A program made the translations under genes and the position numbers. Shown here piece by piece: positions 19,943-49,737 of a stretch of 64,000 nucleotides of DNA. The DNA lies in NCBI RefSeq assembly GCF_032062105.1, contig NW_026920570.1:1-64000 (forward strand). Direction: 5' to 3'. The notes beneath the pieces are model-generated. The model searched no databases. It was given only the letters and a program-made list of their open reading frames with translations, and was not told the DNA's origin. The DNA comes from Saccostrea cucullata. Its lineage: Eukaryota. Every line of letters begins with the position of its first letter. The first letter of the stretch is position 1.

Positions 19943-20135
19943 AGTAGTATAAGGCGCCTAGATAGGCGGGTCAATATCTAGGACATGGGCCCTGGGGGGA
20001 TAGGCGGGTCAACTGAGTGCACTTTCGGCCCTGGGGGGATAGCTGGGTCAACTGAGTACAGTCCCCCTGGGGGATAGCCGGGTCAACTCAGTACAGCCCT
20101 TGGGGTGGGGAATAGCTGGGTCAATTCAGTACACA
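19943..20135 (+). repeat. Polinton left terminal repeat: AGTAGTATAA plus five ~37-bp units
   Basis: Units with core ATAG(G/C)(C/T)GGGTCAA, GGGTCAA at ~19968, 20006, 20045, 20080 and 20118. Confidence 0.85.
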
Positions 20136-20365
20136 GCCCTATGTCCTATACGGGGTGTTTACACTGTATATATTTTTTTTACTATACGCTGCTACTACGA
20201 TTTTGGCAGCGACTCAAGAATGTGATTATGACTTCACGATTTCATTCACAGTCAACAGTCTAGCCAGCCAGCCAGCCAGTTTGAACTGGATTTTCTGAAA
20301 ACAATAACAATAACAAAGACAGACAAGAACACAGATTTTATTCAGAATCAAAATACATACAGAAT

Positions 20366-21141
20366 TTACTTTTTCTTCTTCTGGGTCTTATCGGTCATCA
20401 GGGATAGTTTCCTCTTGTGAGTAGTGCTGGGGCCTGGATTCTCTCTGTTGTGTTCCTTTTTCTCTTTTTTGTCTCCTTCTTTCACTAAGGGTTTGGTCTG
20501 GTGGTTCCCTGATATCTTGGTTTCCTGAGGCTTTTTCTCCAGTTTTTGTACTTCTTTTACGAATTGTGATCCTCCTCCTCATCCTCTGTACACTTATTAG
20601 CCCAATGCCCAAATTTCCCGCACTTGTAGCACAAATCTTTCTTGGGACAATCTGGGGCCCAATGCCCTAACTTTTTACTAGTTTTCTCTTTTTACAGAAT
20701 GATGTAGCATGGATCCGTCTGTCTTGTTTTCTTAGTCTCTCTGGATCCCCCTTGTCCCTCTTTTTTCTGGTAAGAGCTTCCTCCTCCTCTCATTTTGTCT
20801 TGCATGTTAGTGACTTTCAATTCTAATTTGGATAATTTGGCACGAATCAAACAAAATTCACTGGTGTTGTAAGTTTTCAGATCAGTCAGCTTGTTGTCAA
20901 GATCACTCACCTTGTTGTTCATGTAATTTAGCTTGTTGTCAATACCAGACAGCATGTTAACAATCCCATCCAGAGTTGTAGTCAAGATGCTCATATCTTC
21001 TTTATTCATGTATTCTGGAAGATTATACATGCCCAAATCCAATCCCACTGCATCCTGTGACTCTGGCATGGGGGCTCCTACATACCCTTCAGGTGTCACA
21101 TAACTAGGGTTGTCTGGAGTATTCATCATTGCTTCTGCCAT
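20366..21141 (-). pseudogene. Coiled-coil plus two CCHC zinc-knuckle protein, disrupted
   Basis: The frame of the 149-aa ORF continues past an in-frame TAA into LGHWAPDCPKKDLCYKCGKFGHWANKC, then a frameshift leads to a basic tail ending KTQKKKK* at 20366. Confidence 0.65.
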
Positions 21142-21205
21142 AATATTTTCACGTCTGTCAAGTTCGAAATGTCAACGAAGACTGATCGTCAAATCCCAGT
21201 TTTGC

Positions 21206-21394
21206 TTTATATACCTGTTGGATCTGTAAGGGCCGTGTGCATCAATACGTTTTACCTACGTTTTTATACCTGTTGGATTTGTAAGGGCCGTGTGCAAAAA
21301 AAAAACCTTTTACCTACGTTTTCTATACCTGTTGGATCTGTAAGGGCCGTGTGCAAAAATACGTTTTACCTACGTTTTCTACAGGGGTATAAAT
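21206..21394. promoter_or_regulatory. Three tandem ~57-bp copies of a conserved Polinton promoter module; probably bidirectional
   Basis: TATACCTGTTGGAT(C/T)TGTAAGGGCCGTGTGCA..TTTTACCTACGTTTT x3 between divergent genes; minus-strand TATA ~21206-21214 and plus-strand GGGGTATAAAT ~21384-21394. Confidence 0.65.
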
Positions 21395-21432
21395 GAGAAG
21401 AAAAGTTGGTCCTTTCTTCACAATCGACTATC

Positions 21433-21852
21433 ATGTCAACCCTGATACACACTCACTCTCTGATTTTAGATGGGTATGATTGTTTAGTACGATGGGCACA
21501 GAACCACCAAGAAGCTCTTCCCCCGGAGGCAGAACAAGTATTTCAGGAAGCGACCACTATCATGGAAACCCCTCAGGATTTGTGGTTACAATGCCTAGCC
21601 TTATCACATCATGCGACCATGGGGAGACTAGCTACCATACATTTTCTATGTCGACATATGAAAACAATTCTGCCCCAGAAATGGTACGGACTGAACCTGA
21701 CCCATTATTTCGGAAAGCCGTACAGTTTCCTGACCCATCCCCAAGCGGCCAAACTGATTTTACTGTGGGAGGAAATAGATGCGATGGAGAAAGTATGTAT
21801 TCAATACGGAATAAAATGGCTGGAAATTTCACACAGGCTAGGAAATCAGTGA
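21433..21852 (+). CDS. Hypothetical helical protein (139 aa), overlapping the GADD34-like ORF out of frame
   Basis: First ATG after the TATA box at ~21388; open to TGA 21850-21852; no recognisable domain. Confidence 0.55.
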   Translation: MSTLIHTHSLILDGYDCLVRWAQNHQEALPPEAEQVFQEATTIMETPQDLWLQCLALSHHATMGRLATIHFLCRHMKTILPQKWYGLNLTHYFGKPYSFLTHPQAAKLILLWEEIDAMEKVCIQYGIKWLEISHRLGNQ

Positions 21853-49271: not shown

Positions 49272-49328
49272 GACCCCAATAGGAGCTGGCTCTGACTGTA
49301 GAATGAGCTGAAAGTAGGAGAAAACCTG

Positions 49329-49351
49329 TATTTATACAGTGGATGACGTCA
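49329..49351 (-). promoter_or_regulatory. pPolB core promoter: TATA box and perfect CRE
   Basis: TATAAATA (minus strand, 49329-49336) ~60 nt above the pPolB ATG; TGACGTCA at 49344-49351. Confidence 0.7.
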
Positions 49352-49397
49352 CAATGCATAGGTAAGCATATTTTTTTTTGCACACGGCACACCTTAC

Positions 49398-49543
49398 AGA
49401 TGATGCAACAGGTATAAAAAAGATGATGCAATAGATATCAAAAAGATGATGCAATAGATTAAAAAAGATGATGCAATAGATATATAAAGATGATGCAATA
49501 GATATATAAAGATGATGCAATAGATCTAAAAGATGATGCAACA
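49398..49543. promoter_or_regulatory. Tandem array of seven C/EBP-ATF4 composite (CARE/AARE) motifs
   Basis: TGATGCAA(T/C) at 49401, 49424, 49447, 49469, 49491, 49513 and 49534; five read AGATGATGCAATA; spacing 21-23 bp. Confidence 0.65.
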
Positions 49544-49545
49544 AA

Positions 49546-49737
49546 TGTACTGAATTGACCCGGCTATCCTTAGAACCCCCTAATCTGCACTCCCTTGACC
49601 CACCTATCCTCCCCCCAGGGGCTGCACTCCCTTGACCCACCTATCCCTCACAGGGGCTGCACTCTGTTGACCCACCTATCCCCTCAGCCCCAAAAGTGCA
49701 CTCAGTTGACCCACCCGGCCAGGCCGTTTATACTACT
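49546..49737 (-). repeat. Polinton right terminal repeat: five ~37-bp units plus TTATACTACT
   Basis: Reverse complement reads AGTAGTATAA..GGGTCAA with the first core at the same offset (26) as the left end; five GGGTCAA units. Confidence 0.85.

Follow-up and report, generated by a model that had tools for sequence, protein, structure and literature searches.

In the accessible text of the adintovirus report by Starrett et al. (PMC8502044), adintoviruses carry a protein-primed family B DNA polymerase (pPolB), a retroviral-type integrase, an ATPase, capsid genes and terminal inverted repeats (TIRs), all of which are shared by an element that we analyzed in the oyster Saccostrea cucullata, at positions 19943-49737 of a 64,000-nucleotide stretch of contig NW_026920570.1 (hereafter the window). 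Homologs of inhibitor of apoptosis (IAP) proteins were already reported in adintoviruses (section 3.2 of PMC8502044); its main text contains no mention of phosphatase, macro, oyster or stress, and the text of its supplement, the figure images of which are unsearchable, none of PP1, phosphatase, GADD34, ICP34, Crassostrea or macro. Our comparison of related copies suggests that a recent lineage of this family amplified an ATF4-type site at two terminal promoters that fire inward, with the probable effect of linking early transcription to the stress response, a reading to which we give an even chance of being right.

Several described viruses share parts of this arrangement, according to the accessible text of the sources cited here. 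DP71L of African swine fever virus and ICP34.5 of herpes simplex virus 1 share with the protein phosphatase 1 (PP1) recruiter predicted in the oyster element an RVxF motif followed by a W...DR.RF..RI helix, and DP71L also its small size (PMC10807198, PMC8633803, 10.1101/2025.02.28.640897). Unlike these, the oyster recruiter is found in an integrating Polinton, is overprinted on a conserved gene and, in one lineage, stands behind an array of ATF4 sites, which parallels host GADD34, an ATF4 target. In human adenovirus, a related linear double-stranded DNA virus, the terminal early E1A and E4 promoters bind the host stress factor XBP1s, a basic leucine zipper (bZIP) protein, which supports persistence and lytic growth (PMC7181865); that system uses the IRE1-XBP1s arm in a feed-forward manner on an episomal genome, whereas the oyster Polinton has tandem ATF4-type sites, a predicted negative feedback and an integrated genome. 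The long terminal repeat (LTR) of human immunodeficiency virus 1 (HIV-1) provides an integrated provirus that is reactivated via GCN2-ATF4, but HIV-1 is a retrovirus with few sites, and no tandem array or phosphatase mimic is described in the accessible text (PMC5414007, PMC10968437). Endogenous virophages and Polinton-like viruses are relatives that likewise sit integrated and are reactivated by a defined trigger (PMC10945749, 10.1101/2025.10.09.676808), although their hosts are protists and they respond to co-infection with a giant virus rather than to a host stress factor. Already known, then, are adintovirus IAPs, viral PP1 recruiters and stress-bZIP control in adenovirus and HIV; the literature within our reach, outside of which lie most subscription papers and Repbase reports, yielded no Polinton for which a recruiter or an ATF4 array is described.

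ATF4-type sites at the two terminal promoters

The pPolB promoter, near the right end, holds on the minus strand (49331-49351) a TATAAA box at 49331-49336 and a cAMP response element (CRE; TGACGTCA) at 49344-49351, upstream of the pPolB ATG at 49271. Above it stands a 22-bp tandem array (49398-49541, plus strand; within the TIR in sister copies) of seven C/EBP-ATF response elements (CAREs) of the ATF4 type, with TGATGCAA cores at 49401-49541, the closest of which lies about 65 bp above the TATA box. The C/EBP-ATF consensus NTGATGNAAN was matched by 7/7 units, while the longer form was ATGATGCAAT in 5/7 and ATGATGCAAC in 2/7, and ATGATGCAAT is also the ATF4-preferred 10-mer in the accessible text of a massively parallel reporter assay screen (PMC10637723). 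A sequence-only reading of the window had noted seven CAREs and a CRE above the TATA box; they are present, but all seven are units of one tandem repeat (6.5 copies, 90% matches) and hence not independent sites. Over the whole window the motif TGATGHAA occurred 26 times compared to 15.1 +/- 3.9 in shuffled sequences (26 or more in 0/100), and a three-unit array pattern was found in the genome 1291 times, counting overlapping matches, while its reversed control gave 0. A CRE or near-CRE also occurs three times in the element within an 84-bp block (20172-20255, 27925-28008 and 33554-33637), and another CRE lies at 22031.

That the motif might be no better conserved than its spacers was a doubt that the sequence-only reading had raised against itself, and we found the core to be the better kept of the two. 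We compared 54 distinct arrays from loci L001-L080, with an array defined as at least three exact cores, with 30 of the loci retrieved by their likeness to the array, and with the first and last cores excluded. TGATGCAA was kept in 267/277 internal units, and substitution alleles common to three loci numbered 0/24 in the core compared to 7/24 in the 8 nt that follow it (Fisher p=0.009), counts in which the units share descent. The seven shared spacer alleles, together with length changes that are confined to the spacer such that spacing stays at 21-24 bp, and the presence of arrays next to pPolB variants of 75-81% identity (L068, L069, L075), all speak against a near-neutral origin, by which slippage of one existing site and conversion between paralogous terminal promoters would have produced the array, its conservation reflecting youth and few mutations. 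We consider such an origin quite unlikely, even though other lineages have amplified the same slot, free of CARE arrays, as repeats of 55, 63-65, 72, 84-87 and 92 bp, the clade with arrays is shallow, and site number varies from 0 to 12.

To assess distribution over copies, 40 pPolB promoters were hand-picked from 150 protein matches, avoiding selection by array. Among 20 promoters at 69-83% identity, three had arrays, four had single or scattered sites, and 16 had a CRE 15-17 bp above TATAAA; among 20 at 76-96% identity the corresponding counts were three arrays, nine with one site and eight with none, with the CRE-TATA pair in 18. Overall, arrays were present in 15% (6/40), one or two scattered sites in 13/40 and none in 21/40, such that the family as a whole is not wired to ATF4 in the way that the sequence-only reading had proposed for the element. 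The CRE-TATA pair, by comparison, was found in 85% (34/40), and we conclude that it is the core of the family promoter and that the array is a feature of a lineage. A genome-wide count of a CARE-to-TATA pattern was swamped by other repeats.

The second promoter (21206-21393, plus strand) precedes the recruiter gene near the left end, and comprises three 55-bp repeats, a GTGTGCAAAA block and TATAAA at 21388. The GTGTGCAAAA block is common to both promoters, which marks them as paralogous terminal promoters. In the window copy the CARE slot of this promoter is degenerate and holds no site, compared to 0-12 in sister copies: in the 450 bp above the recruiter of the best 30 copies, ten had no CARE, seven had one, five had 2-5 and eight had 9-12, so that at least one site was present in 67% (20/30). 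At both promoters the arrays lie a short way above the TATA box, in the same orientation relative to transcription. Site numbers at the two promoters of one contig co-varied (rho 0.71, 15 pairs; rho 0.74 among 8 pairs not chosen via the array), with the window copy, which has 0 sites at the recruiter and seven at pPolB, as an outlier.

The eight copies with 9-12 recruiter-promoter sites also hold 5-7 sites in the left TIR, and in one sister pair (L010/L050) the array lies inside both TIRs, which are 292 bp long and 99% identical. This position is compatible with structural TIR repeats that a protein of the host or of the element would recognize as a replication origin or as signals for integration or packaging, the ATF4 match being incidental or co-opted for replication; the left TIR array copy is, moreover, about 1.1 kb from the closest inward promoter. 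We consider this explanation improbable, given that the longest arrays (9-12 units) occur at the recruiter promoter, outside the TIR, and that many copies with termini have no array. As separate observations on the termini, the 35-39-bp TIR repeats (19988-20133 and 49574-49715) keep a GGGTCAA core, which we take to resemble a nuclear-receptor half-site, and above pPolB the diverged loci L062, L063, L078 and L079 have, close to the terminus, telomere-like tracts of CCCTAA that reach about 250 bp in length.

The predicted PP1 recruiter and its overlapping gene

Two open reading frames (ORFs) overlap downstream of the left promoter. The second of these (21492-21995, plus strand, 167 aa) encodes a predicted PPP1R15/DP71L-like PP1 recruiter, as judged by profile and PDB-sequence matches: it matched PF10488 with E=2e-5 and 24.8 bits (gathering cut-off 26.1), CReP with E=5e-5 (4v0x) and DP71L with E=2e-4 (9nb9). 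Its motif KSVTF ... W ... DRxRFxxRI (aa 116-162) aligns unambiguously to CReP and DP71L, and includes the W...DR.RF..RI segment that we take to define the PPP1R15 type. In 26 parsed copies, the RVxF element was retained in 25, the Trp in 26 and DRxRFxxRI in 24, and in the first ~100 matches the motif part was 92-98% identical compared to ~89-93% for the whole recruiter. Relative to the diverged copy L182, in which RVxF terminates in Leu, the motif had a dN/dS of 0.39, the upstream ORF one of 0.33-0.36 and the overprinted N-terminus one of 1.6; the noisier values among close copies were 0.3-0.8 for the motif region, 0.5-0.65 for the upstream ORF and 0.8-1.0 for the N-terminus. By these measures the predicted PP1/eIF2 module is under purifying selection. 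The sequence-only claim of a GADD34/ICP34.5-like PP1 recruiter was thus borne out to the extent that the gene appears to encode the PP1-binding module of CReP and DP71L.

The upstream ORF (21433-21852, plus strand, 139 aa) is conserved, occurs in at least 150 copies and has no relative in Atlas or Pfam, and the N-terminal 114 aa of the recruiter are overprinted on it. In a more distant copy (locus L071) both frames are open, with 49% identity of the upstream protein and 71% of the motif, and no CARE at either promoter. The second frame would be left open by chance in 2.4% of cases if the upstream ORF were fully recoded and in 13% if it were half recoded, which makes it probable that translation of the long frame starts at an ATG of its own. 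This ATG is the fourth of the leader and has the best context, and the four-ATG layout is found in 87% (26/30) of copies. Separately, a five-codon ORF at 21470-21487 stops 4 nt ahead of the recruiter ATG, its two ATGs being kept in 29/30 and 30/30 copies. Regulatory upstream ORFs of the ATF4/GADD34 type are short frames that act by position and not as a conserved long protein. An overlapping upstream ORF, as noted in the sequence-only reading, does exist, but it is a conserved gene for a 139-aa protein and not an element of that type, although it may serve as a scanning gate.

The co-occurrence of array and recruiter, which the earlier reading had proposed to survey, had two sides: in a sub-lineage arrays front the recruiter, but the recruiter persists without a CARE at either promoter. 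The array in front of the recruiter gene in this sub-lineage strengthens the idea of a circuit beyond its first formulation. In three left-end loci that were checked later, the recruiter was present in one and absent within 3 kb in two. A library of representatives from public assemblies contained 16 further stand-alone recruiter-like proteins (P0004-P0019), nine of which were looked up and lie on short contigs without context; these small RVxF/DRxRF proteins may constitute a wider, unrecognised family of PP1 recruiters. Another candidate, P0003, was rejected as a spurious repeat protein. In the host genome, PF10488 was also matched by six more small ORFs that stand alone (L129-L134); no element gene was seen within about 1.5 kb of them, and they may belong to host PPP1R15 or other mobile elements. 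Adjoining the recruiter is a Pro/Arg-rich ORF with Cys pairs (22685-23038), longer in the diverged loci L234 and L235, which by description alone resembles the adintovirus 'Oncoid' class.

The window copy and its family

Polintons are characterized by TIRs that begin with AG and by a 6-bp target-site duplication. The window element has the AGT termini and gene content of a Polinton (adintovirus), with an AGTAGT terminus at 19943 and its inverse at 49737, and TIR arms (20003-20111 and 49607-49715) that are 81% alike. On the left (19943-20133, plus strand), terminus and TIR are of the CARE-less type and contain subterminal repeats of 35-39 bp, and 35-37-bp subterminal repeats precede the right terminus (49574-49737, plus strand). 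We found no target-site duplication flanking this copy; when six sister pairs were examined, a 6-bp duplication was present in 2/2 copies with both termini visible.

Four members of the Polinton gene set were identified, on the minus strand. pPolB (45087-49271, 1394 aa) matched PF03175 with E=1e-57, the A32-like packaging ATPase (43761-44597) matched PF04665 over the cut-off (E=6e-6), and the double jelly-roll major capsid protein (28650-30071) was recognized by its fold, as its model (pLDDT 82) matched the Sputnik, PBCV-1 and mavirus capsids in Foldseek with E-values of 2e-15 to 5e-14. The retroviral-type integrase (34503-41449; rve E=2.6e-7) is in pieces: a 5.8-kb Gypsy LTR element (35301-41126, plus strand; 235 identical LTR bases), which has decayed too, splits it, and more stops interrupt the integrase close to the C-terminus. 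A probable adenain-type protease (28147-28650) matched the S273R protease weakly (E=0.11) and had no Pfam match, and a probable minor capsid protein (31057-32265) was assigned by position alone, with no family match. The sequence-only statement that the capsid, ATPase, protease and polymerase ORFs are open was confirmed, for both capsid ORFs.

The accessory genes named in that reading fared differently. The IAP (44450-44983, minus strand, open) was established by Pfam matches to its BIR (PF00653, E=3e-19) and RING (PF13920, E=8e-13) domains. The macrodomain-like frame (23695-24216, minus strand) remains an Atlas lead (score 0.96, with 30/30 matches in the Macro set); it had no Pfam match, its single-sequence structure model was unusable (pLDDT 39), and it has no Met ahead of the conserved N-terminal motif, a Met that is present in 6/7 sister copies. 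The Cys-rich RING-like ORF (32992-33441, minus strand) was recognized by eye, weakly, with no Pfam match. Near the left end, a stop interrupts the window copy's gene for a coiled coil with CCHC-like knuckles (20388-21141, minus strand), a related ORF in L237 continuing into the knuckle, and a decayed LINE-like (long interspersed nuclear element) insertion of approximate limits (25700-27400, plus strand) was read by eye from its translation, with no Pfam match. The split integrase, LINE-like fragment, macrodomain frame without Met, absent target-site duplication, diverged TIRs and CARE-less recruiter promoter had been overlooked or misread. The left end of this copy falls in a CARE-less clade (support 100/99), whereas its pPolB is 96-99% identical to that of array-bearing copies, which identifies it as a recombinant or an assembly mosaic, and functional conclusions consequently apply to the family. 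The flanks hold host B-box proteins on the left (2346-4088 and 10922-12422, one open and one decayed) and a second Gypsy-type pol ORF on the right (52550-56787).

The family is large and high in copy number, with at least 150 scored matches in the genome for each of the recruiter, upstream ORF, pPolB segment and macrodomain. The closest named relatives of the capsid protein are Saccostrea proteins (85-94%), followed by Ostrea and Crassostrea (~70%). A pPolB search of IMG/VR returned no relative, and the array pattern occurred there at 48 loci, 0/48 of which had a match to the element's genes. Neither a tandem array nor a recruiter was seen in 47 pPolB loci from metagenomes (207 kb in all, at 34-49% identity), which, being for the most part short, are too fragmentary to indicate absence.

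A candidate stress-response circuit

We chart the following candidate mechanism. Two related promoters would fire inward from the ends, the right one into pPolB and the left one into the overlapping two-gene unit, whose second frame would supply a PP1-recruiting eIF2alpha-phosphatase mimic. The old core would combine a CRE-TATA promoter, carrying at most one C/EBP-ATF site, with the mimic as an ordinary counter-defence against translational shutdown, and through multiplication of this site a young sub-lineage would have acquired arrays at the two promoters and in the two TIRs. Upon eIF2alpha phosphorylation, host ATF4:C/EBP would most likely bind these arrays and raise early transcription of pPolB and recruiter; the mimic would restore translation and, via lower ATF4, end the pulse, after which the CRE could sustain transcription. 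What we observed is the layout of the element, the identity of its motifs, how these are conserved and spread among copies, the selection on the mimic and the presence of ATF4 in the host; we infer that the factors bind, that transcription depends on stress, that the mimic binds PP1 and is translated by leaky scanning, and that a feedback operates. In GADD34, upstream ATGs are bypassed under eIF2alpha phosphorylation, and a similar bypass may allow ribosomes to reach the mimic.

The host encodes ATF4 (its bZIP has 1ci6 as sole PDB match, E=6e-9), and PERK is described in the accessible text of a report on the Pacific oyster (PMC9680061). Many C/EBP-like and PAR-like bZIPs are encoded as well, with the C/EBP-like ones read by eye, and they fit a real enhancer that is not a stress switch, one served by germline or embryonic C/EBP, ATF or PAR-type bZIP dimers that would reinforce both early promoters, the mimic being an unrelated counter-defence. 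This explanation, which we rate as unlikely, draws further on the CRE-TATA pair as the conserved element, on a mimic that predates the array, and on the established fact that endogenous copies must arise in the germline. Palindromic C/EBP and PAR consensus sites differ from the amplified 10-mer, however, which including its flanks is the one preferred by ATF4, and this argues against a stress-independent enhancer.

Several observations weigh against a link between early transcription and the stress response. Apart from the scarcity of arrays among pPolB promoters, the eight copies with large arrays fall into a single shallow group (support only 93/73, branches <0.01), so that the spacer alleles represent few events and the co-variation between promoters is not independent of descent. 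The exact-core definition and the loci retrieved by likeness to the array bias the comparison towards conserved cores, and the invariant stretch extends to three A's upstream of the core. The recruiter is found in lineages without a CARE at either promoter and, judging by this distribution, is older than the array. The window copy itself is a defective, decayed mosaic. Finally, RNA was scarce, since all copies together, more than 150 in number, yielded about 4-5 reads per kb for each million records, in both directions: three oligo-dT runs of 11-13 million records each gave 100, 63 and 63 reads in 20600-22310. Across the recruiter region these reads run through the promoter and revealed no start site, strand or splice, and one older RNA run (contigs) may contain DNA. 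Such low RNA fits a mostly silent family and is uninformative about induction.

In a complete integrated stress response switch, the arrays would drive both pPolB and the mimic, and the mimic would be favoured in translation under eIF2alpha phosphorylation, as scanning passes over the three ATGs upstream of its own, and would then reset translation. An animal DNA virus in its integrated state would in this way be set to replicate by stress of the host or by co-infection, much as a prophage is by DNA damage. This scheme is as a whole a tentative proposal that we find rather unlikely.

The reactivations of integrated relatives that we found in the literature concern protists and require a giant virus, and what is at issue here is a trigger for an animal Polinton. 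The near-identical copies, in which these two promoters hold anything from no ATF4-type site through one or a few to as many as 12, constitute a natural experiment, and, since they differ in site number, existing stress transcriptomes could be used to test the trigger by allele. On the strength of the predicted recruiter, Polintons would join the viruses with PP1/eIF2alpha mimics. If stress induction holds true, heat or infection could mobilise hundreds of endogenous copies in oysters.

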